Shown: positions 1-22,659 of the stretch, one piece after another | Position numbering within the stretch: the first letter of the stretch is position 1 | Layout of the letters: every line of letters begins with the position of its first letter | Assembly: GCA_963790025.1 (NCBI GenBank) | Contig: CAWBMP010000004.1 | Location: 256,001-320,000 of the forward strand | Reading direction: 5' to 3' | Source: Nitrospirota bacterium | GTDB taxonomy: Bacteria > Nitrospirota > Thermodesulfovibrionia > Thermodesulfovibrionales > Dissulfurispiraceae | Length of the DNA: 64,000 bases | The notes under the pieces: generated by a model | Told to the model about the DNA's origin: nothing | Databases searched by the model: none | The model's input: the letters and a program-made list of their open reading frames with translations, nothing else | Translations under genes and position numbers: made by a program

Positions 1-410
1 AAACCATCCGCCGCATAGACATCGGGGATGTTGACCGTCTTGCCGGTGATCGCCACGTAGGATGAGACATTGGAAAAATTTGGGCCATCTTCTTTTTGCA
101 AAGGCACAGGCGGCCATGTGATCGGTCCCGCGGTACCGCCCATTCTTGTTTTCAATGTGTCGTTCTGGATTATTGTAAACTCGAGGCAGTGATTTTCTTC
201 GTTCATAATGTAGAGCGTACCTGCATCCGCTCCTGAAAATAGCCGCGCATAGCTTATTATGGCCTCGAGAAGGTGTTCAAGATTTTTTTCAGCTGAAAGG
301 GCGATACCGATCTCGGAAAGTTTCCTCACAAGAGATTCATTGTCCGAATACTTCACTCCCGGTCCTTCCCTGTTTGAGGTAGTGTCAATTTCTTTTTTAT
401 GAATTCCCAT
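1..410 (-). CDS. GAF-domain protein, probably GAF + HD-GYP phosphodiesterase (partial, runs off window)
   Basis: Manual translation from ATG at 410 (GGGGAGGA RBS upstream): MGIHKKEIDT...LSEIGIALSAEKNLEHLLEAIISYARLFSGADAGTLYIM...NVSSYVAITGKTVNIPDVY. This resembles the GAF N-terminus of GAF/HD-GYP proteins. The HD domain is not visible in the window. Confidence 0.7.
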   Translation of the reverse strand, partial: MGIHKKEIDTTSNREGPGVKYSDNESLVRKLSEIGIALSAEKNLEHLLEAIISYARLFSGADAGTLYIMNEENHCLEFTIIQNDTLKTRMGGTAGPITWPPVPLQKEDGPNFSNVSSYVAITGKTVNIPDVYAADG

Positions 411-630
411 AATCCTCCCCCGATGCGGTTATTTTACGAGGATACCGGAAAAATGTCCAGCGTCTGATGGCGAAGCATTTTGCCGGCTATGTAATATTAA
501 AATTCTTCCCCGCTCGGCAAGAATGCCCGTCCATAAGACTGGTGTGCCTGACAATATTCTTCTCAAAATAACAGGGAATTGTGGTAAAATCCGCGCATAT
601 AATAAGATTTTTCCCGGGGGAAGGAGTTTT

Positions 631-2727
631 ATGGGGATTTATAAGCGAGCGCTGCCCATTGGAATCTGCATTGCTGCAACGTTATTTTTTTCGTTGCATG
701 CCGCCCGTCTCGTTAATGTCGATTTCATGGACCGGCTGGAAGCTTTGAGTTACGACCTCCGGCTCAATCTTACCCTGCCCCATTCACATAATTCCAAAAT
801 CGTCATAGTCGACATAGATGAAAAAAGCCTTTCCGAAGAAGGGCGCTGGCCCTGGAGCCGCAACAAATTGGCATTGCTGGTGGCCAATTTGTTGCGCCAT
901 AATGCGGCAGTCATCGGCTTAGACGTTGTTTTTGCGGAAAAGGATGAAAGTTCAGGGTTAAAAACATTGGAGCAGTTGGGCAAAAAAGAACTGCACGGTG
1001 ACGAGGCGTTCCAGAACAACTTGAGGAGAATCAGGGACCGGATGGACTATGATAATGTTTTTGCCCGCCTGATTAAGGGCAAGCCCGTAGTGCTTGGCTA
1101 CTATTTCACGCATTACGCGGATAAAAGCAGGGAGCGTGTCAGCGGGCAATTGCCTCCAACGGTTTTCCCTTCCGGGGCATTTGAGGGGATGAACATCCCT
1201 TTTGTGAAAATGACCGGATACGGAGCAAACCTGCCAAAACTGCAGGACAATGCGATGAGCGCCGGACATTTCAATCAATTGCCCGATGCCGATGGCGTTG
1301 TAAGGCGCATCCCGATGATTATCGAATACAACGGCTCTTATTACGAATCCCTCTCGCTGGCTGTTGTTCGCGCCCTCTTCGGCAGTCCTTCTCTAAAGCC
1401 GGGGCTCGTTTCTTCGGGTGGGGGCGGTTCCGCTTATAAGAGGATTGAATGGCTGCAAACGAGTGATCTCAGGATCCCGGTGGATGAGCGTATTACTTCT
1501 TTGATTCCATATGCCGGAGGACAGGGAAGTTTCCCGTATATATCCGCCGCGGACGTTTTGCGTGACAGCATAAAAACAGATGTCCTTGAAGGGGCCATAG
1601 TTTTGGTCGGCACCACCTCCCCGGGATTAATGGACCTGCGCTCCACTCCGGTGCAGGCCGTTTATCCTGGTGTGGAGGTGCAAGCCAACATGATCGCAGG
1701 AATCCTCGATCAAAATATCAGGAAGAAGCCTGCCTATACTATGGGAGCAGAGCTATTGGCGCTGCTGTCGACAGGCTTGTTGCTCTCTTTCTTGTTGCCC
1801 TATCTCAGTCCGTTAAAAGCGACCCTGGTCGGCTTTCTCGCGGCGGCGTGTGTAATAGCGATAAACATGTGGGCATGGAAGAACAACCTGGTGTTGCCGC
1901 TTGCGTCCTCGGTTATCAATATATCGTTTATCTTTATTCTTAATATGTCGTATGGCTTTTTTATCGAGACCGGAGCAAAGCGCAGGATCAAGGCGATGTT
2001 CTCAAGCTATGTTACCGAACGGATAGTTAACGAGCTGATCAAAAATCCTGATATGGCGAAACTGGGGGGAGAGCGAAGGGAAATAACGATTCTGTTCTCC
2101 GATGTAAAAGGGTTTACCAGTTTTTCTGAAAAGCATACGCCTGAGGAAGTCGTTTCCATACTGAATGAATACCTGGGAGCCATGACAGGCGTCGTGTTCA
2201 AATGGGAGGGCACGCTCGACAAGTTTATCGGAGACGCTATCCTCGTATTCTGGAGCGCGCCGATGCACCAGGAAAACCATGCTGAACTGGCGGTGAAATG
2301 CGCTCTCGACATGGTCGGGACGCTGGGACAGCTCAGGCAAAAATGGCTTTCCGAAGGGAAAGCGTCCCTTGATTGCGGAATTGGCATCAATACAGGAGAG
2401 GTCATTGTCGGCAATATAGGAGCCGAAGGGAAGAAAATGGATTACACTATTATCGGCGACCACGTAAACCTGAGTTCACGTGTCGAATCCCTCACCAGGA
2501 AATATAACGTGGATATCCTGATCACAGAATTCACCCTTCAGAAAATCAGGGAAAAAATAGAAAGCAAGTCCCTCGCCCATGTATCGGTAAAGGGCATTGA
2601 AAAGGTTGTAGTAAAAGGGAAAGAAAAACCTGTGGAGATTTACGAGCTGACCTCGCTCGAAGGTGGGAAAGACTCGGTCATTACCAGTCCCGTCGAAAAA
2701 ACGGTCGTTGTGCTGAAAGATAAATAG
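631..2727 (+). CDS. CHASE2-domain class III adenylate cyclase
   Basis: IVIVDIDEKSL..GRWPWSR and GVEVQAN CHASE2 motifs, three TM helices, cyclase motifs LFSDVKGFT, LDKFIGDA and DYTIIGDHVNLSSRVES (K/T pair typical of ATP specificity). Start placed at ATG 631 after AAGGAG; the ORF track starts at 523. Confidence 0.92.
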   Translation: MGIYKRALPIGICIAATLFFSLHAARLVNVDFMDRLEALSYDLRLNLTLPHSHNSKIVIVDIDEKSLSEEGRWPWSRNKLALLVANLLRHNAAVIGLDVVFAEKDESSGLKTLEQLGKKELHGDEAFQNNLRRIRDRMDYDNVFARLIKGKPVVLGYYFTHYADKSRERVSGQLPPTVFPSGAFEGMNIPFVKMTGYGANLPKLQDNAMSAGHFNQLPDADGVVRRIPMIIEYNGSYYESLSLAVVRALFGSPSLKPGLVSSGGGGSAYKRIEWLQTSDLRIPVDERITSLIPYAGGQGSFPYISAADVLRDSIKTDVLEGAIVLVGTTSPGLMDLRSTPVQAVYPGVEVQANMIAGILDQNIRKKPAYTMGAELLALLSTGLLLSFLLPYLSPLKATLVGFLAAACVIAINMWAWKNNLVLPLASSVINISFIFILNMSYGFFIETGAKRRIKAMFSSYVTERIVNELIKNPDMAKLGGERREITILFSDVKGFTSFSEKHTPEEVVSILNEYLGAMTGVVFKWEGTLDKFIGDAILVFWSAPMHQENHAELAVKCALDMVGTLGQLRQKWLSEGKASLDCGIGINTGEVIVGNIGAEGKKMDYTIIGDHVNLSSRVESLTRKYNVDILITEFTLQKIREKIESKSLAHVSVKGIEKVVVKGKEKPVEIYELTSLEGGKDSVITSPVEKTVVVLKDK

Positions 2728-2739
2728 CCGGAAATTGAG

Positions 2740-5535
2740 TCACCAGGCAATAAAAAGCAGGACATATAACGATGCCAGAAACAATGCGGGACAACGCTGC
2801 AAAATGCTTATTTTTACCGGGCCGGACACCGGGGCATTCTTCCGAATAAGCCTTTTCAGTACAGCAAAAGAACCTATCAGCCCTGCCAAAACGAAGCTTA
2901 ACTGGAAGAATCTTGTCAACTGGGAAGATACTATCGGTCCTGACAGACCGGAAGAGAAACCTGTCTGGTGACCAAGTACATTAATAAACTGGGGGCCCAG
3001 GCTGAGCATCCTATGCAGATGAAAGCCCGTCTCAAAAGCGACAGCGAGAGGCAGCAGGGCGTAGACAAGAAGATGCGCCTGTGATTCTCCGCTTTCAGGT
3101 TTTACAGGAATGATCTTTTTACCGGCGGCTTCGATCAAAAACCAAAGCAGCACGCATTCGAATGCAAGAAAGAGAAAAGAGAAAAACCACCATTGCGACC
3201 TCGGGATTTCAATAACCGAGAAAGCCCCTGCATGTTCAAGACCGCGAAAGATCTGAGTGCTTATCAGCACAAGGCCAAGCACAACAGTGCTTCTGTCCGT
3301 TTTACCGATTGTCCAGAGTTCCTGGCCGGGAGGCCGCAGGTTCAACACCGGTGAATTGTTAGGACAGATTTTAAAACAATTGCCGCAAAGCACGCAATTC
3401 TGATTGGATCGAAGAGAGAAAGGCGCCTCGAATACAGGACATCCCTGCTTTGTCTGTCCGCCGGCATAACAATCGAGTTTTGTACAGCTGTTTGTACAGA
3501 TATGATAATTGGAGCGGAGTTCCACAACTGAGCAGGAAGACAGGACTCCGACCATCCCTCCCAGCGGACAAAGATAGCGGCACCACGCCCGCCTCTGGAA
3601 CAGCAGGCCGGTCAAAACAGCGAGCAGTATGATTACAGATAAAAATATAGAGGTTGCAATCGGCGAAGATATCATGCCCGAGGCTGACTCTGACCAGAAG
3701 ATCAATGCAAGGCCGCCAGAGCTGAAATAATAACCATGCTTACGAATGAAAAGCGGGACCCGCTTTTTCAAGCCTGTTAACTTCGAGAGCAGGCCGCTGA
3801 GAGCTCCTACCGGACAGACAGCGCACCATATCCTTGCGGCAAACAAACTGCTCACTACCACGAGCGGCTCCCAGAATCCCCAAACAAGGATCAAAATAAT
3901 GTTTTTCGTGGAAGACTGGCTGCCGAGAAAGCCCAGCGCAATAATCAAAGCGATAAAGGGGGCAATAGATAATTGTACAGCCGTTGGGAATGCCTTGCTC
4001 TTCAGCATCCCGCCGACTTCGGAGACCTGCATCAGGTTAAAGGATAGCTGTCCCGTTACAGGAGGGGGGCCGATAAAAATATGCTCAACCGCCAGGGTGC
4101 TGTCTTTTGCAATACTGACCGCCCTCCTGATTACGACATTCAGCTCCTCCATATTGCCTGGCCAATCATAGGCCATGATCGCCTGATATGCCTCTTCATC
4201 GATTTCCCTGATTATCTTGCCTGATAGTCCGGCATTGAGGTCCAGAAGACCACGTATGATATCCTTCATGTCTTTTTTTCTCTTTCTGAGAGGAGGGACC
4301 TCGAGTATACGGCCGGAGAGAATATCATAGAGCCCCTCATCAAAGACGCCTGTATTCACCGCATCCGCAAGATCGATATGCGAGGTCGCGATAATACGGG
4401 CGTTGGACGAATAGCTGGAAGTTTCCCCGAGGGGGTGAAACCGGCCGGTTTCAACAAATATTCTTATCGCTGCTTGTGCCCCCGGTGAAAGATAATCTAT
4501 GTTCTCAATAATCACAGTGCCGTCTTCTACAAGCTGAAGCAAGCCAAGGCGCTTCCCCGTAGAAAATGGAAAAAAGCCTTCTGCCCTTCCAAACAGGACC
4601 GTAAGCTGTGCCAGTTCAAGCCGGCTGCTCTCTCCGCCGGCATCTGAAATCAATTCTTCAGATGCCCGGACAGTCTTGGCATCCATGCTGAGAAGCGGTT
4701 TCCCTGAGCCTTTGCCCATGTTATGCAAGAGTCTTGCTGCATCCCATAGCTCCGTCCCCGGCTCACCCGTGATCAGGGCCGGCTGCTTGCTTCCCGCAGC
4801 AGACTTAATCCCGGCTACCAGCTTCCTTATGAGCGGACTGTTCCCGGCAATCTTTCGTTCGTCCCTTGCCATCTGCTCTGTAATGAACCGCCTGTATGCC
4901 TTCTCGTCAGAGTAGGTTTCGACGGCCTTCGTATTACCGAGGGATATACGTTCTGAAAGCACACGTATAAATGCCCGTGAAGCAGCGGGACAGGATACAA
5001 GCAACTCATTAAAGAGTTCTCTGTGAATGGCTATAAGTGACGTTCTTTCAATTGTCATGACTGAGGCTGATCTGGGTTCACCGGTCAGAAGGGCCATTTC
5101 ACCAAACCCTTCAGCCGTGCCAAGGGTTGCAAGAGGCACGACCGCGTCAGAACCTGATTTTGTGCTCACAAGAACTTTGCCTGAAACAACAATGTAATAG
5201 TTATCGGCCTCGTCAAACTGCTCAAATATAGCTGTGTTTTCAGGGTAGATCAGATGCCGCGAGTTGAAAGCTATCCATGCAATGGTTTCTGGAGGCATCG
5301 ATTCAAAGAGTTCCATAGCTGCAAGCAGGGCCTCTCTCTGTTTCTGCAGGCAGGCTGCAAGGTCGTCTTCCCCTATCCATCCCTGCTCCAGGCATATTTC
5401 GCCAACTGTCTTGTGTATCCCCTGGGTTATCAAGTCGGACTGGATTTCAAGCGCCTTCTTCAGGCTTTCATGGCGGCCACTCAGTTTTTCGACAAGATAA
5501 TAGCCGATATTTTTTACAGGTCTATTTCTTTCCAT
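2740..5535 (-). CDS. cNMP-binding + sigma54-type AAA+ (degenerate) + NapH/NosR-like 4Fe-4S membrane domain fusion protein
   Basis: FGEMALLTGEPRSASV (cNMP), YDWPGNMEEL (bEBP-type AAA+), WCAVCPVG and WCRYLCPLG (CxxxCP), CVLCGNCFKICP ferredoxin motif, many TM helices. Start uncertain; the ORF track starts at 5694. Confidence 0.8.
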   Translation of the reverse strand: MERNRPVKNIGYYLVEKLSGRHESLKKALEIQSDLITQGIHKTVGEICLEQGWIGEDDLAACLQKQREALLAAMELFESMPPETIAWIAFNSRHLIYPENTAIFEQFDEADNYYIVVSGKVLVSTKSGSDAVVPLATLGTAEGFGEMALLTGEPRSASVMTIERTSLIAIHRELFNELLVSCPAASRAFIRVLSERISLGNTKAVETYSDEKAYRRFITEQMARDERKIAGNSPLIRKLVAGIKSAAGSKQPALITGEPGTELWDAARLLHNMGKGSGKPLLSMDAKTVRASEELISDAGGESSRLELAQLTVLFGRAEGFFPFSTGKRLGLLQLVEDGTVIIENIDYLSPGAQAAIRIFVETGRFHPLGETSSYSSNARIIATSHIDLADAVNTGVFDEGLYDILSGRILEVPPLRKRKKDMKDIIRGLLDLNAGLSGKIIREIDEEAYQAIMAYDWPGNMEELNVVIRRAVSIAKDSTLAVEHIFIGPPPVTGQLSFNLMQVSEVGGMLKSKAFPTAVQLSIAPFIALIIALGFLGSQSSTKNIILILVWGFWEPLVVVSSLFAARIWCAVCPVGALSGLLSKLTGLKKRVPLFIRKHGYYFSSGGLALIFWSESASGMISSPIATSIFLSVIILLAVLTGLLFQRRAWCRYLCPLGGMVGVLSSCSVVELRSNYHICTNSCTKLDCYAGGQTKQGCPVFEAPFSLRSNQNCVLCGNCFKICPNNSPVLNLRPPGQELWTIGKTDRSTVVLGLVLISTQIFRGLEHAGAFSVIEIPRSQWWFFSFLFLAFECVLLWFLIEAAGKKIIPVKPESGESQAHLLVYALLPLAVAFETGFHLHRMLSLGPQFINVLGHQTGFSSGLSGPIVSSQLTRFFQLSFVLAGLIGSFAVLKRLIRKNAPVSGPVKISILQRCPALFLASLYVLLFIAW

Positions 5536-5806
5536 ATTGATTTCCTGTTTATAATGAAAAAACTTCGACCCTGACAGCCCAAATCTTGCCATAACGACCC
5601 AGTGGTTTGCAACATTATAACGCATTACCCGATTTAAATAAAAAGGCCGGACGGGGTCCGGCTTGTCTATGGAGCAAGTTGGTAAATTTGACAATGCGAT
5701 AATTTTGGTATGACCTGGTATGACATAGGAAAGTTATTAGGTGTATTAAATGGTTGTATTTTTTATTTTAATTTGCTATTTTATATTGTTCTTAAAGGGG
5801 CAAAAA

Positions 5807-7654
5807 ATGGCGCTCGATTTAGGGTTTTATTCAGGTAAATTATGTACCGCACAGGAAGCAGTTGCCACGATAAAGCCGGGCAGTCAGATATTTGTGGGGA
5901 CTGCATGCGCTACACCCCGCGCGCTTCTCAGTGCACTGGAATCCCTTGAAAATGCTCCTGACGATGTTACTATTTTTTCTTTCCTGACAAATGGAGCTGT
6001 CCCCATTGAGAATGGCCGGCCCTTATCCAAATACAAGCATAAATGTTTTTTTGTCGGGAGCGATCACAGGGAGGCAATTCAGGAGGGATTCGCCGAGTAC
6101 ATACCCATCTCGCTTGCACAAGTGCCCTCATTGATCGAAAACGGTCGTTTTCGTATAGATACAGCTTTTATTCAGGTCTCGGCTCCGGACCGTAATGGTT
6201 ATGTAAGCTTGGGCGTATCTGTGGACATAACTCTTTCAGCCGTCCGGAACGCGAAGCGCGTTATCGCTGAAGTGAACCCCGGCATGCCCTTCACGTTCGG
6301 CGATTCGATGATTCACCTCGACCAAATTGAACGTCTTGTAGTTCAGGACGCTCCCATGATTGAATATGTCCATCCGCCTATCAATGCAGTTGCTCGGCAA
6401 GTGGCATCCTATATAGCCGGCATTATAGAGGATGAATCTACGCTGCAAATCGGACTTGGCAGAATACCCAACGAAGCGCTTCGTTATCTCACAAAGCGTC
6501 GCGATCTCGGTATCCATTCGGACGTGATTACTCATGTTCTGTCTGATCTCATCGAACAGGGTATTGTTACCGGGCGTAAAAAAACACTTCATCGTGACAA
6601 GGTTGTCACAAGCTATTGCCTGGGAACAAAGCAGTTCTATGACCTCATACATATGAACCCGATGTTCGAGTTCCGCCCCATAGAGTATGTTTGCGATCCG
6701 CTTATAATTGCCCGCAACCGTCGCATGGTATCGGTCACCCAGGCATTTGCAATTGACCTTACCGGCCAGATATGTACTGATCAGTTGGGAGGGAGGTTTT
6801 ATGGCGGAGTCTCGACGCAGCCTGATTTTCTCCGTGGGGCAGCCAGGTCAAAGGGAGGCAAACCGATTGTCTGTATGTGCTCCACTGACGATAGCGGCGC
6901 GTCCAACATTCGCCCGCAGTTGTTTCCGGAAGAAGGAGCAGGTGTCTCCAGGTCCGATATCCATTATGTGATTACCGAATACGGCGTAACGTATCTTTTC
7001 GGCAAGTCCGTCCGGGAACGGGCACTGTCACTCATCGAAATTGCACATCCCGATCATCGTCCCATGTTACTGGAAGAAGCCAAACGCCTCGGATACATAC
7101 CTGTTTCTCAGACCCTCAAATCGCACTACGCGTACGAAATAGAGGTTGAACGCACTGTAACGCTTAAAAATGGCAAAGAAGTTCTGATCCGTCCGGCACG
7201 TGCAAGCGACAGCAGCAACATCACAAAGTTATTCCATGCGCTTACTGAAGATGACATTTACACCCGTTTTTTCAGCAGACTTAAGACCCTTTCATTCATG
7301 CAGACACAGCAGCTTTGCAATGTCAATTTTGAGGACGAGGCGGCTTTTATTGCAGCTTTTGGAGAGCGTGAGAACGAAGAGATTGCAGGAAGTTCCTGCT
7401 ACTTCCTGAATCCTTCGACAAACATTGCCGAAGTGGGATACATGGTTGCCAGGGAATGGCAGGGCAGCGGGCTGGGGACTGCTCTGCAAAATCATATGAG
7501 GGATTACGCTATTAAAAAGGGCATCCGGGGTTTTAAGGCTGAAGTCCTGAGCTCAAACACCAGGATGATAGCGCTGGCCCAGCGCGTCGGTGAAAATGTT
7601 AAGATAACTCGTGCTTACGATACCCATGAGATCACCGTCTATTTCGACAAGTGA
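5807..7654 (+). CDS. Acetyl-CoA hydrolase/transferase family protein fused to C-terminal GNAT acetyltransferase
   Basis: LQIGLGRIP, GIHSDV, DFLRGAARSKGGKPI, VITEYG motifs; C-terminal VLIRPA...AEVGYMVAREWQGSGLGT GNAT motif A. Confidence 0.88.
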   Translation: MALDLGFYSGKLCTAQEAVATIKPGSQIFVGTACATPRALLSALESLENAPDDVTIFSFLTNGAVPIENGRPLSKYKHKCFFVGSDHREAIQEGFAEYIPISLAQVPSLIENGRFRIDTAFIQVSAPDRNGYVSLGVSVDITLSAVRNAKRVIAEVNPGMPFTFGDSMIHLDQIERLVVQDAPMIEYVHPPINAVARQVASYIAGIIEDESTLQIGLGRIPNEALRYLTKRRDLGIHSDVITHVLSDLIEQGIVTGRKKTLHRDKVVTSYCLGTKQFYDLIHMNPMFEFRPIEYVCDPLIIARNRRMVSVTQAFAIDLTGQICTDQLGGRFYGGVSTQPDFLRGAARSKGGKPIVCMCSTDDSGASNIRPQLFPEEGAGVSRSDIHYVITEYGVTYLFGKSVRERALSLIEIAHPDHRPMLLEEAKRLGYIPVSQTLKSHYAYEIEVERTVTLKNGKEVLIRPARASDSSNITKLFHALTEDDIYTRFFSRLKTLSFMQTQQLCNVNFEDEAAFIAAFGERENEEIAGSSCYFLNPSTNIAEVGYMVAREWQGSGLGTALQNHMRDYAIKKGIRGFKAEVLSSNTRMIALAQRVGENVKITRAYDTHEITVYFDK

Positions 7655-7658
7655 ATAA

Positions 7659-9248: not shown

Positions 9249-9329
9249 TGCGTTATATTGAACCGCATAACAGGCCAGACACCATCACAGGCCTTTTTTG
9301 CGAGTAATCATTTCAGGAGGAATTGTGGG

Positions 9330-10196: not shown

Positions 10197-10239
10197 TGTA
10201 ATACTGCTTACACACTTTTTTTTACGGCCGGCATATAAT
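10197..10239 (+). promoter_or_regulatory. CRP/NtcA-like box TGTAA-N6-TTACA plus -10 TATAAT (class II geometry) upstream of tpsA1
   Basis: TGTAATACTGCTTACA at 10197-10212; TATAAT at 10234-10239 places the box centre at -41.5. Confidence 0.7.
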
Positions 10240-10359
10240 AATGGAAGCTAGGCCGCAGGACTTGACCTTAGTGTGGCTAAACGATGCCTTTTAATACAGA
10301 CATGGTATATAATTAGCGACCAGGGAAACAATGTAGCATCAAGTCGAGGGGGAGCAGTT

Positions 10360-16300: not shown

Positions 16301-16806
16301 CAGAGGCCAACACAACTGTCGTGAACTCGACCCAAACAGCCACGACGACAACCACTGTTACGCCTTCATTGCCTACAACAAGCAATCAGAACATTACAGC
16401 GTCTTTAGTTGATACATCAGCGCCTTCAACAACAGCTACATTATCTTCAGCAGACACAGCGAGTGCCTTTAATACGACAGTCTCTTCGGGGTCTTCTTTG
16501 AGTGGTCCACAGGGATACGGATATTCTTCGCCAACTGATCCGACAGTTCTGGCGACGTTCTCCGGGAAGGACGGTGCAGCAACGGCCTCGACAGGCTCTT
16601 TTGGGTTCGCCTACACAGGGCCATCAGCCGCAGAGATAGCTATATTCTCAGGAACAAGAGGTGGCACACAGGGATCTTCTTCGACAACGTCGTCGTCCGG
16701 AAGCGGAGCTGCGGGAAGTTCGGGAGGACGCTCAGGGAAACATGATACAGGAAGCACAGCAAGTGACAAGGGCAATCAGAAACCCAAGAAAACTTTTTGT
16801 AATTAG
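10360..16806 (+). CDS. TpsA filamentous hemagglutinin-like adhesin 1 (TPS domain, GLUG repeats, MBG-like domain, Thr/Ser-rich tail)
   Basis: Signal peptide (..AFA/LPSG), NPNGI TPS motif, WLIDP, many VGGLVGYN GLUG repeats, SITKTYDG..GYDITYVQGTLTI MBG-like domain, C-terminus KKTFCN. Confidence 0.92.
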   Translation: MSGPLQRYAVIFVLLVFSTNVAFALPSGPQIANGQVSFNTLGNNLTVTNSPNSIINWLSFSIGGNEAVRFIQQNSASAVLNRITGQSPSQIFGLLQSNGRVFLVNPNGILFGQGSQINVAGLVASTLNINDQDFLAGKYNFTAGAVAGSIQHQGTITTPSGGSVYLIAPNIENSGIITSPQGTVLLAAGHSVQLVDSSNPDIAVVVSSPTDQAVNLGQIIAQSGTVGIYGALISQKGLVSADSATVGANGKIIFKASKSVTLDEGSVTSAQGGGTISVLADMQNGTVNVAGTLDASAPNGGNGGFIETSAASVKIADTAYVTTLAPYGKTGTWLIDPPDFTIDANPTVGDISGAALGQELDLTSIIIHSADGLKNTSGNGDIFVNDSISWSHPTTLSLLADRNININQAIQGSNSGSGVVLTASTGSISGTGVITAGSLTANAATGIGNSQALNTKVSTLSVSNSTSGDINISNNASGGILYVSGTNSASGGDFKVAENSGYIYAYSITAGRDITLSNNTGWIETAGTITSGRDITLTDTGNSIYICGNTVSAIRNINLTADYIEICSNVTASGDLSAVTLNGGLGFYNGGSIDLTGSAPTLSINSKPYTVINSHNYSTLPNIINVNPASYYALGQNMDASTWSSGISSFSGVFEGLGHTISNLNINKTGDSNYIGLFGNNSGTIQNVGLTNVNINVTGNSNYVGGLVGYNSGTVSNAFVTGQSTGSAITVTGNNNFVGGLVGYNSTAGTINNNSYNSGCVTVLGDNNKVGGLAGSNMGSIDSSGNTGGMSVTGTSSDGNFVGGLVGYNDSGGGICWSYNSGGINVNGQGNTNTVGGLVGANQSGNTITGSYNSGPVAAYGNNSIIGGLVGQNSGNITSSYNTATVTEHGDTGKTGGLAGYNNAGTIDSSYNNGDVAVTSNLSDGNAVGGLVGYSDGTIRNASYNSGAVSVTGMDSINYNYVGGLVGQNAGSIDSTYNNGIVTTSGDYNKVGGLVGSNGSNVPGNAAITNSYNTGTVNDSNGSNNLVGGLVGYNCFGNSISYSYSSGLVSGTSASGTQKGGMVGQNDGTITSSYWDMYTSGLTSGVGLDNNSGATTLTGLSSQSGSAFVQNNYAGFDFTSGSPVWYMVPGSTRPFLTSEYSTTISNAHQLQLIGMNATTLSASYTLAKNIDMNELKNSSGMWNSSYNSSTQTWSGTGFVPVGSNANTAFTGSFYGNGYFIDGLYINTTANNVGLFGYSSGYIYNVPLKDVNINGGSGSYIGALVGHNTGSIYYSYSTGTVSTNGSCSGGGTVGGLVGYNDSSGTITNSYSSTNVSTINSGGSDSVGGLVGSNYGSIDYYSYSTGTVTTNGSNGRDSVGGLVGYNDSRGTITNSYSSANVSANSSLGGDSVGGLVGSNYGSIGYYSYSTGTVNTNGSNGRDSVGGLVGYNDSRGTITNSYSSANVSANSSLGGDSVGGLVGSNYGSGSNGISNSYSTGTVTTNGSLDSNSGNANNTNHNNNGNDNVGGLVGYNFGSINNSYSSAVVSTNYSSCLDSVGGLVGFNDIIGSITTSYSSGSVTTTNSSGGESVGGLVGSNYGSGSNGIINSYSTSIVSINGSSDSGYRNVNNSNNNNNGNDNIGGLAGYNNGSINNSYSIGSVSTNGSNGGDSIGGLVGFNDISGSITTSFSTANVSTINSGGGDSVGGLVGSNYGGGSNGISNSYSTGTVTDNSSGSYGVNPNTPLANSGNDYVGGLAGYNNGNINNSYSIGSVSSNGGDSIGGLVGSNSGNIANSYWDATINQGLDNGIGTPLTTNQMMSYNTFQNVWSISQSGTTTPSGNTPWVIYDGLTYPLLKSFLTPLTITASSITKTYDGTPYSGGNGVTYSVPNAYNYLQGTLGYTGTAQGAIDPNPTYTIIPTGLYSNNQQGYDITYVQGTLTITGGTTTTATTTTTTQGSTTTATDTTTTNTTTSPATTALSTQGSTTTATTTTPAQTAATTASTEANTTVVNSTQTATTTTTVTPSLPTTSNQNITASLVDTSAPSTTATLSSADTASAFNTTVSSGSSLSGPQGYGYSSPTDPTVLATFSGKDGAATASTGSFGFAYTGPSAAEIAIFSGTRGGTQGSSSTTSSSGSGAAGSSGGRSGKHDTGSTASDKGNQKPKKTFCN
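14180..14800 (+). repeat. Intragenic tandem repeats of ~195-198 nt (GLUG units) in tpsA1
   Basis: ACAGCACAGGCACGGTAA recurs at 14183, 14381, 14576 and 14780; units 2 and 3 are near-identical. Confidence 0.85.
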
Positions 16807-16870
16807 CCTCCCGCCAGGAAAACAAGCATATAAGGCTGAATAAATCTTTCTTTACAATGGGTGCCGTTTA
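16742..16870 (+). pseudogene. Duplication junction: truncated fecR 5' end joined to a copy of the CRP gene 3' end
   Basis: 16742-16812 matches 19875-19944 (MIQEAQQVT..KLFVISL); 16815-16871 matches the CRP 3' end 10140-10196. Confidence 0.85.
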
Positions 16871-16871
16871 A

Positions 16872-16914
16872 TGTAATCCTGCTTACACACCCTTTTTTAC
16901 GGCTGGCATAAAAT
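16872..16914 (+). promoter_or_regulatory. Second CRP/NtcA-like box plus -10 TAAAAT upstream of tpsA2
   Basis: TGTAATCCTGCTTACA at 16872-16887 and TAAAAT at 16909-16914, the same spacing as copy 1. Confidence 0.7.
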
Positions 16915-17017
16915 AATGTCAGATAGGCCGCAGGACATGACCTGGGCAAGGGGAAGTTGGCATGGTATATAATAGGAACCAGGGAAACAATATAGCATCA
17001 AGTCGAGGGGGGGAGTT

Positions 17018-19939
17018 ATGTCAGGACCGCGTCTAAGATATGCGATAATTTTTGTCCTTCTCGTATTCAGTACAAACGTCGCCTTTGCCCTTCCCTCCGG
17101 GCCGCAGGTTGCAAACGGGCAGGTCAGCTTCAAAACTCTGGGCAATAATCTTACTGTCACCAACAGCCCCAATTCGATAATCAACTGGCTGAGCTTTTCG
17201 ATTGGCGGCAATGAGGCGGTGCGCTTTATACAGCAAAACAGCGCAAGCGCTGTCCTGAACCGCATCACCGGGCAGTCTCCTTCGCAGATATTCGGTCTTC
17301 TGCAGTCAAATGGCAGGGTCTTTCTCATCAACCCAAACGGCATACTGTTTGGTAAGGGTTCACAGGTCAACGTAGCCGGACTGGTGGCATCCACACTGAA
17401 CATCAACGATCAGGATTTCCTGGCAGGGAAGTATAACTTTACTGCCGGCGCTGTTGCTGGGAGCATCCAGCACCAGGGGACGATAACGACGCCTTCCGGC
17501 GGCTCGGTATACCTGATAGCGCCAAATATAGAAAACAGCGGAATCATCACATCTCCGCAGGGCACAGTGCTGCTGGCGGCGGGACACAGCGTGCAACTGG
17601 TGGATTCATCCAATCCTGACATAGCAGTTGTAGTGAGTTCTCCAACCGATCAGGCTGTGAACCTTGGACAGATAATAGCGCAGAGCGGGACAGTGGGTAT
17701 ATACGGGGCTCTCATATCGCAGAAAGGGCTGGTGAGCGCAGACAGCGCAACAGTGGGGGCCAACGGCAAGATAATATTCAAGGCAACGGAAAGTGTAACG
17801 CTCGATGAAGGCAGTGTGACCAGCGCACAAGGCGGCGGGACCATCAGTGTTCTGGCAGATATGCAGAATGGGACAGTGAATGTAGCGGGCACGCTTGATG
17901 CTTCAGCGCCGAATGGCGGCAATGGGGGTTTCATAGAGACCTCGGCGGCAAATGTGAAGATAGCGGATACAGCCTATGTTACCACACTTGCGCCATACGG
18001 GAAGGCGGGAACGTGGCTGATCGATCCGACTGATTTTACCATCTCTTCGGGTAACGCATCGCAAACAACCAGTGGTATCGGTGCGAACACGTTGATGAAG
18101 GATCTCTCACTCGGCAATATGGCCATCCAAACCGATAATTCGACCGGCAGCAACCCCGGCGATATTTATGTTAATGGCCCTGTGAATTGGAGCAGCGCTT
18201 ACAGCCTGACTTTAACCGCCTATCATGATATATACATCAACTCTCACATTAATGCGGTTGGCGGTGCAGGACTTATACTCTCTTCGGGCACGAGCGGCAA
18301 CGGTGCCATAAGCGGCACGGGTAATATAACTGCCGGCACGCTTACAGCGACCGCAGCTACCGGCATCAGCCTTACAGGCAGTAACGTAGTTCCGATTGTA
18401 AGTCTCACAAACAATACCAGCGGCGATATCATTTACAATAGCGCCGTAGGCAGCGGGCAGACTCTTTACATATCAGGCAGGAACTCTGCGTCAAACGGGG
18501 CGTTCACCGTTACCGAGAACAGCGGCAATCTCAATGTATACAACAATGGTACCATTAATGGCATCACCAGTAATGGCGGTCTGGTGACCCTCACTGCCAA
18601 TACGGGCTCCATAAACGGCACAGGTGTTATAACTGCAAACAGCCTTACAGCGACTGCGGCTACCGGCATTAACCTGACCGGCAATAACATAGTGCCTGCT
18701 GTTAGCCTCACAAACAATACCAGCGGCGATATCAACTACGACAGCAGCGTAGGCAGCGGGCAGACTCTTAACGTTAGCGGCACTAACTATGCTTCCGGCG
18801 GTCTCTTCAATGTCACTGAGAAATCCGGCACTCTCAATGTGATCGACTCCTGTATCATTACTAATTCCGGAGCGGTAACCCTCACTACTTCTCCCGGGGC
18901 GGGCAACATCACCCTTACAAGCTATATAGACACGACAAACGGAAATACGGCCAGCGGGGCTGCCGTTTATCTTAATTCAGCAGGCAGCATAACAGGCGGC
19001 GTCTCCGGTACCCCCGGGATAATAACTGCAAACAGTCTCACAGCTACCGCGGCAAACGGCATTACCCTCGGCTCAGCAAACTACTATAATGACGTGCAGA
19101 ACGTAAGCCTCACAAACAATACCAGCGGCGATATCATTTACAATAGCGCCGTAGGCAGCGGGCAGACTCTTAACGTTAGCGGCACTAACTATGCTTCCGG
19201 CGGTCTCTTCAATGCCACAGAAAAATCCGGCACTCTCAATGTGGCAAACGCCGGTATTAAGACCACGGGCGGGCCGGTAACTCTCACCACAAATGCCGGT
19301 CCAATTACCGTTACAGGCCCTATAGATACGACCAATAGTAATACTGCTCCCCCTAACATCGTCACTCTTAATTCAGCGGGCGGCACAAGCGGCTCCGGGA
19401 AAATAACGGCCAAACAAAACACAACTACTGCGACCGATACAACGACGACTGATACCGCAACAACTACACCTGCTACTCAAACTGCTGCAACAGCGGCGAC
19501 TGATACAACGACGACTGATACCGCGACCACCGACCCATCAACCACTGCTGCACTTAATGCGTCGACAGAAGCCACTGCAACTGTTGTCAGCACGACCCAA
19601 TCAGTCACCACAACAATAGCCGTTACGCCTGCATTGCCTACAACCAGCAATCAAAGCGTTACGGCATCATTGGTGGATTCATCGCCGGCGACATCTCCTG
19701 AAACTGCAGGGCAGGATCCCCTGTCATTTGCTTTCGCAACAACAGTTAGTCCGGACTTGGGCACGGGCGCCTTACCCATCGGCACAGGCTCTCAAAGCCT
19801 CGCCCAGGGTCCGTCCTCCTCAGGCAATGGAGGTTCAGGGAGTTCAAAGGATTTTGACAGCGGTAAAGGAAAACATGATACAGGAGGCACAACAAGTGAC
19901 AAAGGCAATCATAAATCCAACAAAACTTTTTGTAATTAG
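17018..19939 (+). CDS. TpsA filamentous hemagglutinin-like adhesin 2 (shorter paralog)
   Basis: First ~335 aa near-identical to TpsA1; three SLTNNTSGDI.Y.S.VGSGQTL repeats; Thr-rich tail; C-terminus NKTFCN. Confidence 0.92.
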   Translation: MSGPRLRYAIIFVLLVFSTNVAFALPSGPQVANGQVSFKTLGNNLTVTNSPNSIINWLSFSIGGNEAVRFIQQNSASAVLNRITGQSPSQIFGLLQSNGRVFLINPNGILFGKGSQVNVAGLVASTLNINDQDFLAGKYNFTAGAVAGSIQHQGTITTPSGGSVYLIAPNIENSGIITSPQGTVLLAAGHSVQLVDSSNPDIAVVVSSPTDQAVNLGQIIAQSGTVGIYGALISQKGLVSADSATVGANGKIIFKATESVTLDEGSVTSAQGGGTISVLADMQNGTVNVAGTLDASAPNGGNGGFIETSAANVKIADTAYVTTLAPYGKAGTWLIDPTDFTISSGNASQTTSGIGANTLMKDLSLGNMAIQTDNSTGSNPGDIYVNGPVNWSSAYSLTLTAYHDIYINSHINAVGGAGLILSSGTSGNGAISGTGNITAGTLTATAATGISLTGSNVVPIVSLTNNTSGDIIYNSAVGSGQTLYISGRNSASNGAFTVTENSGNLNVYNNGTINGITSNGGLVTLTANTGSINGTGVITANSLTATAATGINLTGNNIVPAVSLTNNTSGDINYDSSVGSGQTLNVSGTNYASGGLFNVTEKSGTLNVIDSCIITNSGAVTLTTSPGAGNITLTSYIDTTNGNTASGAAVYLNSAGSITGGVSGTPGIITANSLTATAANGITLGSANYYNDVQNVSLTNNTSGDIIYNSAVGSGQTLNVSGTNYASGGLFNATEKSGTLNVANAGIKTTGGPVTLTTNAGPITVTGPIDTTNSNTAPPNIVTLNSAGGTSGSGKITAKQNTTTATDTTTTDTATTTPATQTAATAATDTTTTDTATTDPSTTAALNASTEATATVVSTTQSVTTTIAVTPALPTTSNQSVTASLVDSSPATSPETAGQDPLSFAFATTVSPDLGTGALPIGTGSQSLAQGPSSSGNGGSGSSKDFDSGKGKHDTGGTTSDKGNHKSNKTFCN

Positions 19940-20618
19940 CCTCCTGGCCCTGTTGTTTATACTGGTTGCGTATGCAGCGTCATTTGCCGGAGAAGCTGCA
20001 GGGACGGTCACGCACATTAGCGGTCCCCTGTTTGCAAAGAAGGCCGATGGTACGACCAGGGTCCTGTCCAAAGACTCTACAGTGGAATCAGGGGACGTTA
20101 TTGTGTCGGAGAAAAGCACGTATGCCCGTATAAAGTTCACTGACGGCAGCGAGATGACTCTGCGTCCGGACACCCAGATCAAAATAACAAACTACAGCTA
20201 TGATCAGGCCAAGCCCCAGGAAGATGCTGCTGTTTACGATTTGGCGAAAGGAGGACTTCGAGCTATTACAGGGGCCGTAGGGAAACGCGGCAATAAGGAC
20301 AGCTATAAAATGAATACGCCCACGGCAACAGTTGGGATCAGAGGGACAGTTTATGAGTGCCGGCTGTGCGAAGGCAACTGCGGGCAGGTCCCCAACGGTT
20401 TATATCTGTTTGTCGCAACAGGAGCAATCGCAGCTACGAACAGCGGCGGCTCGCAGCATATCAATGCAGGCCAGTATGCGTATGTTGCATCCCCGAGCGC
20501 CAAGCCTGTAATCCTGCCGGGGAATCCCGGTATAAATTTCACCTTGCCCCCGTCCATGACGTCAGCCTCCGGCCAATCCAAGGGCGGAAACAAGTCAGGC
20601 GACTGTACGGTTCGTTGA
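19875..20618 (+). CDS. FecR-domain periplasmic protein, overlapping tpsA2 3' end
   Basis: AAAGGA RBS before ATG 19875; hydrophobic N-terminus; GDVIVS..ARIKFTDGSEMTLRPDT, GGLRAITG and TPTATVGIRGT FecR motifs; ends GDCTVR. Confidence 0.88.
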   Translation: MIQEAQQVTKAIINPTKLFVISLLALLFILVAYAASFAGEAAGTVTHISGPLFAKKADGTTRVLSKDSTVESGDVIVSEKSTYARIKFTDGSEMTLRPDTQIKITNYSYDQAKPQEDAAVYDLAKGGLRAITGAVGKRGNKDSYKMNTPTATVGIRGTVYECRLCEGNCGQVPNGLYLFVATGAIAATNSGGSQHINAGQYAYVASPSAKPVILPGNPGINFTLPPSMTSASGQSKGGNKSGDCTVR

Positions 20619-20629: not shown

Positions 20630-22099
20630 ATGACCATGGATGGAATTACTGTGCATATACTGGGTGACTCCAGTTCTTTCTCAAGAGTGGGAAAAAGTAT
20701 CGGCTATAAGGTAACCGTTGGCGGGCAAGTCTACCTGATTGACTGCGGCACGCCTCTTTTTCAGCAGATAGGAGGGCATGGACTGAAAGAGCTAAAGGGG
20801 CTTATAATCACGCACTGTCATGACGACCATAAAAGGTGGTTCAGCGACCTTGCGTTATTCCATATGTATGCCCCGGACTTCCATAATAAGGTTTCCCTGA
20901 TAACTTCCGAATCGGTCCACGAGGATTTAATTGAATCGTCAATGCCGGTGATTGGAAAGAGCCTGTCCAAAGATTCAAAGAATATTGTAGACATGGCATT
21001 CCAGGATTACATAGATTACAGGATGATAGGACCGGAAGCCGGATATAAGATTACTGCAACTCATAGGAGAGGGAAAACCCTTCTCTGCGTAACAGACAGG
21101 CAGGACAGTGTTCTTCCGCCGGATATGGCAAAAATCGTAGTCAGCAATAAGACGGGAAAGCCCCGCATGCTTTTTAAAGACCCGGATTACGGGGAGTGGA
21201 TAGAACCGGAAAGTTTTTATTCATTCTCGTCATCGGTATTCTACGGGAAAGACAGGAACGTTCTTCTGGAAAGGGACGGCTGTACTATTGAAGCGATAAA
21301 ATCCCCGGTATGGCATGGAGTTCCCGCCATAGGAATCAAGATCAAATATGGCGCTGATACATTGATATTCAGCTCCGACACTGTGCATGACAGGAAGCTC
21401 TGGAAGCAGTTATGCTCTGAAAAAAGACCGCAGATGCTTCGCATGTCGAAGAAAGAATTCGAATCCGCATCGGTGATTTACGGCGACATAAACGATTACA
21501 TTGAACGGACCTGGAGCGAAGAACGTTACAGGGACGCTATTAATGCTTTTAGCGGTGCGGCGGTGATACACGATATATCGGTCAGGAACAGTGTAGTCCA
21601 TACAGACTATGAAAAACTCGATAATACGACTTTGAGGAAAGATCGGGTGCTCCTGACACACGGCCCCGACAGGTTTACTTCCGAATGGGCCCTGAGCAAC
21701 GCAGGCAAGACATTCGTGGTCAGGGGATGCAGATTTCTTGAAATGGTCGACGGCGAACTTTTTCCTCTTGATGCGGACATTTATCACAAGGAGGAGGGCA
21801 AGTTCTATGTAGGGTACAGGAATAAGCATGGCAAATACCCCGTATATGAAAAAAAGGGGCTTTTGCAGTTTGCTTCTTACGACGGGTCCGAAGTCGGACG
21901 CCACTTGTTCAACGTCGATTTATATGAGGACATCGGCGGGAAATACTTTCCGAAACTCGAAAACGGGAAATGTATCTATCTTGAACGCAGCGATGGCCGG
22001 GTCGAGCTGTTGAAATTCACTGAAGAAGGCAGCAGAGGGAAGATAGCAGAAGACCAGAGAGTTGTTTTCGCAAAGAAAAGAAACAAACAAAAAAGCTGA
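20630..22099 (+). CDS. Metallo-beta-lactamase fold hydrolase (possible cNMP phosphodiesterase)
   Basis: ILGDSSSFS, YLIDCG, THCHDDH (HxHxDH), WHG, FSSDT and LTHG motifs. The ORF-track start at 20357 overlaps fecR and is unlikely. Confidence 0.75.
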   Translation: MTMDGITVHILGDSSSFSRVGKSIGYKVTVGGQVYLIDCGTPLFQQIGGHGLKELKGLIITHCHDDHKRWFSDLALFHMYAPDFHNKVSLITSESVHEDLIESSMPVIGKSLSKDSKNIVDMAFQDYIDYRMIGPEAGYKITATHRRGKTLLCVTDRQDSVLPPDMAKIVVSNKTGKPRMLFKDPDYGEWIEPESFYSFSSSVFYGKDRNVLLERDGCTIEAIKSPVWHGVPAIGIKIKYGADTLIFSSDTVHDRKLWKQLCSEKRPQMLRMSKKEFESASVIYGDINDYIERTWSEERYRDAINAFSGAAVIHDISVRNSVVHTDYEKLDNTTLRKDRVLLTHGPDRFTSEWALSNAGKTFVVRGCRFLEMVDGELFPLDADIYHKEEGKFYVGYRNKHGKYPVYEKKGLLQFASYDGSEVGRHLFNVDLYEDIGGKYFPKLENGKCIYLERSDGRVELLKFTEEGSRGKIAEDQRVVFAKKRNKQKS

Positions 22100-22155
22100 C
22101 TAAGTTGCAGGTTCTCCCCACAGTTATAGCTTAAACATGGTAAAATGACTATAAC

Positions 22156-22659
22156 ATGATCGCAAAGATTTCCATGACTGTGCTTTTTTTTCTTGCGGCT
22201 TTGTTGCCCGCACTGATCACGGTTGAAAACGTTTCGGCTGATGAGACGATTCCGTTTACTGCGCGGGCCGGTATCAAATTTGTCACCGTGCTGATAAATG
22301 GTGTGCCTATTGAACTCATCTTTGATACCGGGGCTGATAACATTGTTCTCAATAAGGACACATTACAGCGCCTCGGGATCACAACTTATAGCACTACACG
22401 GAAGCTCCAGGTGCAAACTGCCGGATGTGTCATAGACGGCTATGTGCTCACACTTGGTTCCATCAAGGTTGGAAATATCGAAAGATACAATTATGATATT
22501 GCCTACATCCCCTCATCCACTAAAAACCTTCTGGGGTCATCTTTCTTCACCAACTACAATTATTACATCGACGAGGATTACAAAGTGATAAGGCTGATTC
22601 CAAAGGGCAGGTTTCTTTTCGAAAACCCGGCAGGAAGTCTGGGACTAGCTCCTAACTAG
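22156..22659 (+). CDS. Retropepsin-like (clan AA) aspartic protease, secreted
   Basis: Signal peptide, V.INGV..LIFDTGAD catalytic motif, QTAG flap, LLGSSF. Confidence 0.85.
   Translation: MIAKISMTVLFFLAALLPALITVENVSADETIPFTARAGIKFVTVLINGVPIELIFDTGADNIVLNKDTLQRLGITTYSTTRKLQVQTAGCVIDGYVLTLGSIKVGNIERYNYDIAYIPSSTKNLLGSSFFTNYNYYIDEDYKVIRLIPKGRFLFENPAGSLGLAPN

Follow-up and report, generated by a model that had tools for sequence, protein, structure and literature searches.

In this study, we analyzed a stretch of 64,000 nucleotides from a bacterium of the phylum Nitrospirota (GenBank assembly GCA_963790025.1, contig CAWBMP010000004.1, positions 256,001 to 320,000), which is referred to below as the window. 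Its left part carries a gene island encoding a class III adenylate cyclase with a CHASE2 sensor domain, the outer-membrane transporter (TpsB) and two exoproteins (TpsA1 and TpsA2) of a two-partner secretion (TPS) system, and an exported FecR-domain protein. Genes for cyclic nucleotide monophosphate (cNMP)-binding proteins, a metallo-beta-lactamase (MBL)-fold hydrolase and other accessory proteins, as well as open reading frames (ORFs) of the right flank, are listed with them in Table 1. We consider it likely that the CHASE2 cyclase, TpsB, TpsA and FecR form one functional unit, and we propose, with less assurance, that the secreted TpsA filament may be coupled through FecR to the synthesis of cyclic AMP (cAMP).

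Table 1. Genes and candidate sites of the island and of its right flank (positions in the window).
Feature	Position	Strand	Support
CHASE2 class III adenylate cyclase	523-2727	+	Pfam CHASE2 3.2e-60 (204 bits), Guanylate_cyc 9.2e-27 (94 bits)
cNMP-binding, degenerate sigma54-type AAA+ and NapH-like 4Fe-4S membrane protein	2740-5694	-	Pfam, NCBIfam
Acetyl-CoA hydrolase/transferase-GNAT fusion	5750-7654	+	Pfam
TpsB outer-membrane transporter	7659-9248	+	Pfam POTRA_2 6.7e-21 (74 bits), ShlB 5.5e-28 (99 bits)
CRP/FNR-family regulator with additional NikA-like N-terminus	9258-10196	+	cNMP_binding 78 bits, HTH_Crp_2 49.8 bits
Candidate class II-type tpsA1 promoter	10197-10239	+	Geometry read from the sequence; putative function
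TpsA1, TPS domain and GLUG repeats	10360-16806 (listed ORF from 10273)	+	NCBIfam TIGR01901 1.5e-23, Pfam Glug
Duplicate candidate promoter before tpsA2	16872-16914	+	Read from the sequence
TpsA2	17018-19939	+	Pfam TPS 3.8e-33 (116 bits)
Exported FecR-domain protein, 240 residues	19896-20618	+	Pfam FecR 38.9 bits
MBL-fold hydrolase	20630-22099	+	Pfam Lactamase_B
Exported clan AA aspartic protease	22156-22659	+	Pfam, TIGR02281
PAS-GGDEF protein	22656-23672	-	Pfam/NCBIfam scans

A model's earlier reading of the letters and translated ORFs (the sequence-only reading) had described most of these genes, and its observations hold for the most part. The domain scans recovered the CHASE2 adenylate cyclase, TpsB (by POTRA_2 and ShlB), the CRP-family regulator (by cNMP_binding and HTH_Crp_2), both TpsA adhesins (by the TPS domain or TIGR01901), the MBL hydrolase and the aspartic protease, as had been stated. 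The noted lack of an extracytoplasmic function (ECF) sigma factor and of a TonB receptor was also verified for the window: Sigma70_r2 and TonB_dep_Rec gave no match anywhere in the 64 kb, and a search of the genome placed the closest sigma-factor match at a distance of about 160 kb and the two TonB receptors on a different contig. Two assignments had to be corrected. The gene on the minus strand that follows the cyclase, taken for a GAF (HD-GYP-type) gene, showed neither a GAF nor an HD match at E<=0.01, and no HD enzyme that could reset the signal was found within the window; the gene taken for a cNMP receptor encodes the acetyl-CoA hydrolase/transferase-GNAT fusion instead. A generic promoter and terminator scan of positions 1-20000 gave no usable operon boundaries. 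At the right end of the island, the 3' ends of the aspartic protease gene and of the convergent PAS-GGDEF gene share 4 nt (22656-22659).

The sequence-only reading had proposed a survey of other genomes for co-occurrence of tpsB, tpsA, fecR and the CHASE2 cyclase gene, and had named a lack of conserved linkage first among the findings that would refute it; the linkage proved to be conserved. Loci were found with the single FecR protein and then with an alignment of its family (A1), and were scored by tblastn and locally built hidden Markov models; many of them are short contigs of metagenome-assembled genomes (MAGs), and the bit thresholds used below (180, 870 and 900) were chosen by us. The 81 locus identifiers of this FecR-anchored set correspond to 80 distinct loci, as L013 overlaps L004, and are labelled as Nitrospirota, Syntrophales, Smithellaceae, Desulfuromonadales, Oxalobacteraceae, Gallionellaceae and Sulfuricella. 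TpsB was detected in 59 of them and a TPS domain in 65. Where both were seen, the order was nearly always tpsB-tpsA-fecR, and Nitrospirota, Desulfobacterota and Betaproteobacteria all include relatives with this colinearity. A CHASE2 cyclase gene lies within 10 kb at 25 of the 80 loci, directly upstream of tpsB in 12 cases and downstream of fecR in 13, and the linkage of all four genes spans three phyla. The genes occur in at least five different arrangements that preserve this linkage, in Nitrospirota, Syntrophales/Smithellaceae, Desulfuromonadales, Oxalobacteraceae, Dechloromonas and Acidiferrobacteraceae. The distance between the cyclase gene and fecR, 17 kb in the window, is shorter in relatives; at one locus (L078), tpsA, fecR and the cyclase gene are consecutive, no more than about 70 nt separating neighbours.

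Co-inheritance was then followed at the level of genomes, the figures being raw counts, not tests, from related genomes that are not independent. The family of one Undibacterium carrier was sampled evenly, and 25 of the 61 genomes taken contain FecR at E<=1e-30. Of these 25, 24 possess a full-length cyclase (>=900 bits); a cyclase of this score is present in 5 of the 36 genomes that have no FecR match. All 17 genomes with the best FecR matches (>=180 bits) encode the cyclase, and in 13 of them the two genes share a contig and are no more than 14 kb apart. In the window's own genus, FecR was detected in 6 of the 9 other genomes, one of these being a fragment at a contig end, while none of 21 genomes of other genera in the window's lineage carries it. 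Several FecR-anchored loci (L001, L004, L006, L017 and L027) coincide in their contig coordinates with these matches from the genus. The cyclase ortholog (>=870 bits) is limited to the window genome and 5 of these 6 other FecR-positive genomes, and is present in none of the 24 FecR-negative ones. FecR and the cyclase ortholog have thus been gained and lost together.

Both window TpsAs score 82-85 bits with TIGR01901. TpsA2 is built from the TPS domain, beta-helix repeats and a Thr/Ser-rich tail of about 200 residues; for TpsA1, the ATG at 10360 is the likely start, being homologous to that of tpsA2, and the listed ORF opens at an upstream GTG (10273). The two proteins end with KKTFCN and NKTFCN, respectively. 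For each locus, the tail was defined as the C-terminal 70 residues encoded by the long ORF that runs up to fecR, and the resulting set of 82 tails includes both window TpsAs and the duplicate locus L013. An end of the form [YF]CN was observed in 74 tails (70 YCN and 4 FCN). Four exceptions are ends of TpsB, at loci where fecR lies ahead of tpsA, and at the two of these that were checked (L070 and L076) the downstream TpsA ends with YCN; three more still contain a Cys within 5 residues of the end, and one resembles a frame problem. Among the 74 [YF]CN tails, a Lys occupies position -5 in 60 and position -6 in 46, the 40 residues ahead of the motif are enriched in K, G, S, D, E and T, and the terminal Cys is the sole Cys of the last 70 residues in 73. 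The motif thus closes a long, hydrophilic and disordered tail and mostly follows two lysines.

A matching cysteine was found in the FecR-domain protein. Its gene probably starts at the GTG at 19896, eight bases behind AGGAGG and within the final 44 nt of tpsA2, and therefore overlaps tpsA2, whose stop codon lies at 19937-19939, by 44 nt, in agreement with the overlap already seen in the sequence-only reading. Residues 1-31 form a signal-peptide-like helix that is directly followed by the FecR domain, and the protein shows neither an N-terminal cytoplasmic anti-sigma domain nor a membrane anchor beyond the signal peptide. Alignment A1 contains 30 sequences of this family of about 240 residues; in total, 521 proteins out of 1421 candidates were retained at E<=0.001, and PF04773 was present in all of the best 120 of these 521. 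Three cysteines (C158, C162 and C237) are invariant in A1. Furthermore, all 87 complete TPS-type FecR ORFs from all loci have a Cys 3-4 residues from the C-terminus, and 81 of them end with C-x-[VIMLA]-[RK], such a near-terminal Cys being present in just 3 of the 17 other FecR-domain ORFs. This pair of cysteines, one near the end of each protein, suggests a periplasmic tether between TpsA and FecR.

An AlphaFold2 model of the window FecR, computed from A1 (mean pLDDT 83, pTM 0.73), showed an all-beta fold for residues 32-222 and a disordered tail (224-240, pLDDT <50) that contains C237. In this model, C158 and C162 are found within one hairpin loop and may pair with each other. Foldseek comparison of the model retrieved the C-terminal cell-surface signalling domain (CCSSD) of PupR (6ovk, E 2e-6) and a Bacteroidales anti-sigma periplasmic domain (4m0h, E 4e-5). 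In addition, the first FecR sub-domain resembles a "cell surface anchoring domain" (5ix9; target-normalised TM-score 0.83, root mean square deviation 1.0 over 67 columns, 25% identity). This last match agrees with a weak match of FecR to 5ix9 in a profile search of solved structures and with the NCBIfam LapA retention module (NF033682), which matched FecR at 2.9e-10 with 40.5 bits, below its cut-off of 50.

As read from the alignment, the cyclase consists of one N-terminal hydrophobic segment, the periplasmic CHASE2 domain, three hydrophobic segments and the cyclase domain. Residues D527, K567, D571, T642, N649 and R653 are retained and are invariant in the cyclase alignment (A2); we take the Asp pair to be metal-binding, K567 and T642 to specify the substrate and N649 and R653 to stabilize the transition state, and the enzyme presumably belongs to class IIIb. 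Among solved structures, its closest relatives are the adenylate cyclases 6fht, 2w01 and 3r5g. To our knowledge, no ligand or other input has so far been defined for CHASE2, which is a widespread extracytoplasmic sensor domain. A paper on a Burkholderia operon states that the factors recognised by CHASE2 are not known (PMC5192318). The window cyclase does not have the C-terminal extension of about 75 residues that was found in 15 of the 15 other A2 sequences (consensus ...LYLERIA.YR..PPG.DWDGVTTFETK), and the gene convergent to it ends 13 nt from the cyclase end. Many cyclase homologues in Burkholderiales and Rhodocyclales (L093, L095, L099, L100, L104 and more) have no TPS or FecR gene nearby; at these loci, the cyclase gene is preceded, at a distance of about 4.4 kb, by the gene for a divergent second CHASE2 protein and followed after about 1 kb by that for a cNMP-binding protein (about 360-460 residues).

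The window genome encodes exactly two CHASE2, two FecR and two TPS proteins, both TPS genes being those of the window. A gap of 9 nt separates the second fecR from the second CHASE2 cyclase gene, which follows it, at a locus (L090, 4979-14438, at about 251-261 kb of contig C2) that represents a second, unrelated FecR-CHASE2 pair; the gene order there is TPR/NosD/GNA1162-like lipoprotein, transglutaminase-like protein, FecR, CHASE2 cyclase, histidine kinase and response regulator. This FecR (361 residues) has only the N-terminal FecR domain in common with the window FecR (30% identity over 139 residues) and contains no cysteine after its signal peptide, and no TPS gene was found within about 10 kb of the pair. 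In another genome of the window's genus (L017), a gene for a DsbC-like disulfide isomerase (DsbC_N and thioredoxin-like, 8878-9666) is located 2.5 kb downstream of fecR, behind genes for a sigma54 response regulator and a histidine kinase. This neighbour may bear on the idea of a cysteine tether, though its position could be due to chance.

Genes for the perception and removal of cAMP were examined next. In the other lineages, canonical cNMP-binding proteins or CRP regulators are encoded at L018, L031, L046, L048, L049, L059, L064, L066, L110 and L122, and in most cassettes the cNMP-binding protein has no DNA-binding domain. Loci of the L046 type combine a stand-alone cNMP-binding protein with a class II (MBL-fold) cAMP phosphodiesterase (PDEase_II), and an enzyme of the latter class is encoded after fecR in Herbaspirillum huttiense (L147). 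GAF-HD-GYP proteins are found in Massilia (L036) and Dechloromonas (L122), and a Metallophos phosphoesterase accompanies a cNMP-binding protein in a Desulfobacterota MAG (L018). Finally, a full CRP-family regulator is encoded at L049 and, between tpsB and tpsA as in the window, at L110. The recurrence of cNMP-binding, CRP and phosphodiesterase-type genes fits the idea of a self-contained cAMP circuit. Large ORFs that match no Pfam family occupy a conserved position at L046 (822 residues, 11517-13985) and L018 (478 and 1010 residues, 12580-17100), between the fecR or cNMP-binding gene and the phosphodiesterase or cyclase genes; the 1010-residue ORF shows a faint cNMP_binding match.

In the window, the tpsA unit is tandemly duplicated. 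The repeat begins approximately 50 nt before the end of the crp gene, reaches into the first bases of fecR and ends just past the TFCN stop, in the former 5' end of fecR (compared segments, 10150-10360 and 16790-17018). TpsA1 and TpsA2 are near-identical over their first 380 residues or so; their passengers differ, GLUG repeats being present in TpsA1 alone. A palindrome precedes each gene: TGTAATACTGCTTACA (10197-10212) is separated by 22 nt from TATAAT (10234-10239) before tpsA1, and TGTAATCCTGCTTACA by 22 nt from TAAAAT before tpsA2. They are the only two perfect TGTAA-N6-TTACA palindromes in the 64 kb, and since both belong to one tandem duplication they count as one observation. Their spacing to the hexamer corresponds to what we take to be the geometry of class II CRP/NtcA-type promoters, and the palindromes are candidate regulatory sites of tpsA1 and tpsA2. 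Thus, of the CRP-type boxes reported in the sequence-only reading, one palindrome before each tpsA stands, but the E. coli CRP consensus is not enriched (20 matches versus 24 expected).

The product of the CRP/FNR-type gene reaches 99 bits with the NCBIfam CRP model PRK11753, whose cut-off is 266, and its additional N-terminus is a NikA-like ribbon-helix-helix. No crp gene was found at the corresponding position of the same-genus loci L001 and L092. The convergent gene next to the cyclase encodes a protein of 984 residues with a canonical phosphate-binding cassette (GEPRSAS) in its cNMP-binding domain and, in place of a DNA-binding domain, a NapH/MauN-like polyferredoxin membrane domain (Fer4_5). 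Its AAA+ domain reads GEPGTELW, GFFPFSTG and IIENID at the Walker A, GAFTGA and Walker B sites and is not accompanied by HTH_8; compared with what we take to be the canonical forms, Walker A is without its lysine and Walker B without its acidic pair, and the GAFTGA loop is lost as well. With such degenerate motifs, this protein probably does not function as a sigma54 activator. Promoter-like sites for sigma54 show no excess (34 versus 33.6 expected) and are absent from the intergenic regions of the island, and no full-length homologue of the 984-residue protein was detected in 170 related loci.

The MBL-fold hydrolase has as its best solved sequence relatives two Apyc1-type structures, 7t28 (1.5e-5) and Apyc1 7u2r (7.9e-4). 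The Atlas lead for it was the PF23023 family, with which it scores 12.6 bits, the cut-off being 50. It is distantly Apyc1-like and is a candidate cyclic-nucleotide phosphodiesterase by sequence; a class II assignment was rejected, the HxHxDH motif alone aligning with the L046 enzyme. No homologue of it was found in related loci, and for the aspartic protease a single weak and partial tblastn match (L093) was obtained in the 170 loci, so that its membership in the system is doubtful. Neither the MBL, the protease and the crp gene nor the CRP box is conserved with the cassette in related loci. More generally, the MBL, the protease, the CRP protein, the cNMP-AAA-NapH protein and the PAS-GGDEF protein were rejected as core components, because no full-length homologue at a conserved place exists in related loci. 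The exception among the accessory genes is the acetyl-CoA hydrolase/transferase-GNAT gene, whose GNAT part weakly resembles mycobacterial Pat (NCBIfam): a copy 58% identical to it lies directly after fecR in the distant genome of L018 (10722-12587).

FecR-domain genes beside CHASE2 receptors are already in print. Published examples are a cluster of a cyclase, a cAMP phosphodiesterase, a FecR-domain protein and a TPR protein in Campylobacterota (PMC9239204), a FecR-domain gene next to the CHASE2 receptor in a Burkholderia kinase operon (PMC5192318), and the clr-cyaD1-smc02177-smc02178 cluster of S. meliloti (PMC5498481). Like the clusters of Campylobacterota and S. meliloti, the island couples a cyclase genetically to an exported FecR-domain protein, with candidate genes for cAMP turnover or reception nearby, neither an ECF sigma factor nor a TonB receptor, and horizontal spread. 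It differs from them in that fecR overlaps the gene of a TPS exoprotein and its product bears an extra, Cys-containing C-terminal module; TPS genes are not described for these two clusters in the accessible parts of both papers (PMC9239204, PMC5498481). L090 is a plain member of this kind and resembles the Campylobacterota cluster, including a TPR gene, of which there is none in the island. What is new is the full TpsB-TpsA-FecR-cyclase cassette over three phyla, the [YF]CN end of TpsA and the matching terminal cysteine of FecR. In a literature search outside of which most subscription journals fell, we found no work joining CHASE2 with two-partner secretion, nor this type of FecR with a TpsA.

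Three further systems offer analogies for the TpsA-FecR pair. The C-terminus of HMW1 and HxuA stays in the periplasm, where a disulfide-containing anchor locks it to TpsB (Buscher et al. 2006, reviewed in PMC5422565). By analogy, the extreme C-terminus of the window TpsAs may be periplasmic and could be retained at TpsB through cysteine chemistry. Unlike the intramolecular disulfide loop of HMW1 and HxuA, the tails of this family contain a single Cys (73/74), so that any disulfide must form in trans, and a dedicated partner gene supplies a protein with a terminal Cys. With FecR/PupR signalling the module shares the periplasmic fold (6ovk, 4m0h) and would share the logic of a relay that carries an outer-membrane event across the periplasm; it differs in having no anti-sigma domain, ECF sigma factor or TonB-dependent transducer, its presumed output being cAMP in place of a released sigma factor. 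The VreAIR system of P. aeruginosa, which is of FecR/PupR type, reportedly regulates a TPS system. Finally, part of the FecR domain resembles in sequence and fold the retention module of LapA/MpIBP-type RTX adhesins (5ix9, NF033682), and a folded periplasmic domain could, as in these adhesins, hold the filament in the outer-membrane pore. Unlike this module, which is part of an adhesin secreted by a type I system, the window FecR is a separate protein in a type Vb system.

These elements can be arranged in the following scheme. First, TpsB would export TpsA, the extreme C-terminus of which would remain in the periplasm. Then, the FecR-like protein would capture this end, probably by a disulfide between the terminal cysteines, and the filament would be tethered. 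The periplasmic CHASE2 domain would in turn read the state of the tether and alter cAMP synthesis. Finally, lineage-specific cAMP receptors and phosphodiesterase-type enzymes would close the circuit; in the window, these could be the cNMP-binding membrane ferredoxin-like protein, the CRP-family regulator with its tpsA boxes and the Apyc1-like MBL. Gene content, conserved linkage, co-inheritance, the two terminal-cysteine motifs and the FecR fold are shown by the sequence data and the model, and on this basis the periplasmic retention of the TpsA end, the disulfide, the contact of FecR with CHASE2 and the direction of signalling are inferred. The steps do not deserve the same confidence. We give the TpsA-FecR tether an even chance, and the outside-in relay from it to CHASE2, which is our preferred reading of how the parts work, slightly less than that. 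Taken as a whole chain, the view of the island as one horizontally mobile envelope module, with a four-part core and the sensing steps above, is likewise tentative and falls a little short of even odds. A more specific version, in which TpsA is covalently bound to the tail Cys of FecR, FecR is docked on CHASE2, and pull on the filament, its cleavage or its release switches cAMP, is unlikely in all its details. The circuit put forward in the sequence-only reading, where engagement of the adhesin passes via FecR to CHASE2, is therefore supported in part.

Several observations weigh against the outside-in relay or against a tight association of its parts. At 8 of the 80 FecR-anchored loci, which are in full view, there is no cyclase gene, nor is there one at 3 others seen on the upstream side only, and 44 could not be judged because their contig is too short or shows too little upstream of tpsB. 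Loci of the Undibacterium type have no cyclase gene within 10 kb, and in the single genome of this type that was checked (G001), the cyclase ortholog is located on another contig. When the cyclase was used as the anchor, 80 loci were kept from at least 597 relatives (alignment A2); TpsB or a TPS domain was found at 16 of them and a TPS-type FecR at 7, the others having a different FecR-domain gene beside the cyclase, or none. The cyclase family is therefore broader than the TPS-linked cassette and works without a TPS-FecR partner in many genomes. Given the horizontal movement of the cassette and the lack of independence among related genomes, hitch-hiking could account for some of the linkage. 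Furthermore, several hosts are strict anaerobes, in which the formation of periplasmic disulfides is less certain. Upstream of tpsA at 66 other loci, no TGTA-N8-TACA was found at any of 163 TPS-match positions; these loci likewise have no crp gene, and the box is therefore a local addition of the window genome only. The phosphate-binding cassette of the window CRP-family protein, GEMSLIDGSTACATV (GSTACAT), has no arginine, whereas GE..(P)RSA is found in 20 of 27 cNMP-domain rows from related loci and the form of its relatives is GEPRSAT. The missing residue is presumably the one that binds the phosphate of cAMP, and the usual cAMP binding and response of the window protein are doubtful on this account. 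Finally, the FecR-domain protein smc02177 of S. meliloti is activated by Clr and cAMP and is dispensable for the perception of the plant signal (PMC5498481); as a Clr target, it favours a role of FecR as an output.

This last precedent leads to the main rival of the outside-in reading, namely control from the inside out only. CHASE2 would then sense an unrelated periplasmic cue, cAMP would control the expression, retention or release of the TPS filament, and the FecR-like protein would be a mere anchor or chaperone of the TpsA C-terminus that sends no signal to the cyclase. In addition to smc02177, this explanation can draw on the CRP-family gene and the class II-positioned palindrome before both tpsA genes of the window, on the CRP regulators within the cassette at L110 and L049, on the likeness of the FecR fold to an adhesin anchoring domain (5ix9 and the LapA retention-module match) and on the precedent of HMW1 and HxuA for pure anchoring (PMC5422565). 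However, FecR stands beside CHASE2 also where no TPS gene lies within about 10 kb, as at L090 and, as far as the accessible texts go, in the published Campylobacterota (PMC9239204) and Burkholderia (PMC5192318) neighbours, and an anchor-only role leaves this pairing unexplained. The FecR fold is moreover that of a known trans-periplasmic signalling adaptor (6ovk), and the cNMP-binding protein of most cassettes, devoid of a DNA-binding domain, also speaks against it. We regard inside-out control alone as rather unlikely. The two readings can also be combined as a feedback loop, as the sequence-only reading had proposed.

The cysteines could alternatively have a chemical role: the terminal Cys of TpsA and the three of FecR would bind a metal or act as a thiol switch, and would report the redox or metal state of the periplasm to the cyclase. 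The conservation of all four residues (C158, C162 and C237 of FecR and the penultimate Cys of TpsA), the apparent presence of sulfur- and iron-cycling anaerobes among the carriers and the NapH-like Fe-S membrane protein with a cNMP-binding domain encoded by the island are in line with this explanation. It is nevertheless very unlikely, as C158 and C162 share one hairpin loop and may be occupied with each other, and the NapH-like gene is specific to the window genome.

That the cyclase and TPS-FecR genes merely travel together on a mobile island and share no function is the least probable explanation and a highly improbable one: the patchy distribution (six of the nine other genomes in the genus, none of 21 from sister genera), a transposase between the cyclase gene and tpsB in the L027 genome, and the many cyclase homologues without TPS genes and TPS-FecR loci without an adjacent cyclase would suit it, but the linkage outlasts at least five gene orders in three phyla, both genes are kept even in genomes with unlinked copies, the second, unrelated FecR-CHASE2 pair of the same genome repeats the pairing, and cAMP receptor and phosphodiesterase genes of different families have been recruited independently.

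The cassette is also present in cultured and non-fastidious Oxalobacteraceae, namely Massilia agrisoli, Duganella sacchari, Janthinobacterium, Undibacterium and Herbaspirillum huttiense, so that experimental work on it is feasible, and it offers two precise residues for mutation, the penultimate Cys in TpsA and the Cys in the FecR tail. The module is a testable candidate for a CHASE2 input, in which a surface filament is coupled to the receptor via a FecR-fold adaptor. If the more specific version with a covalent tether docked on CHASE2 is true, the module would be a trans-envelope device that senses contact or force and would provide the first defined input for a CHASE2 receptor. The module would also represent a third mode of surface retention for type Vb exoproteins, with the anchor provided in trans, and would connect type V secretion with cAMP signalling.

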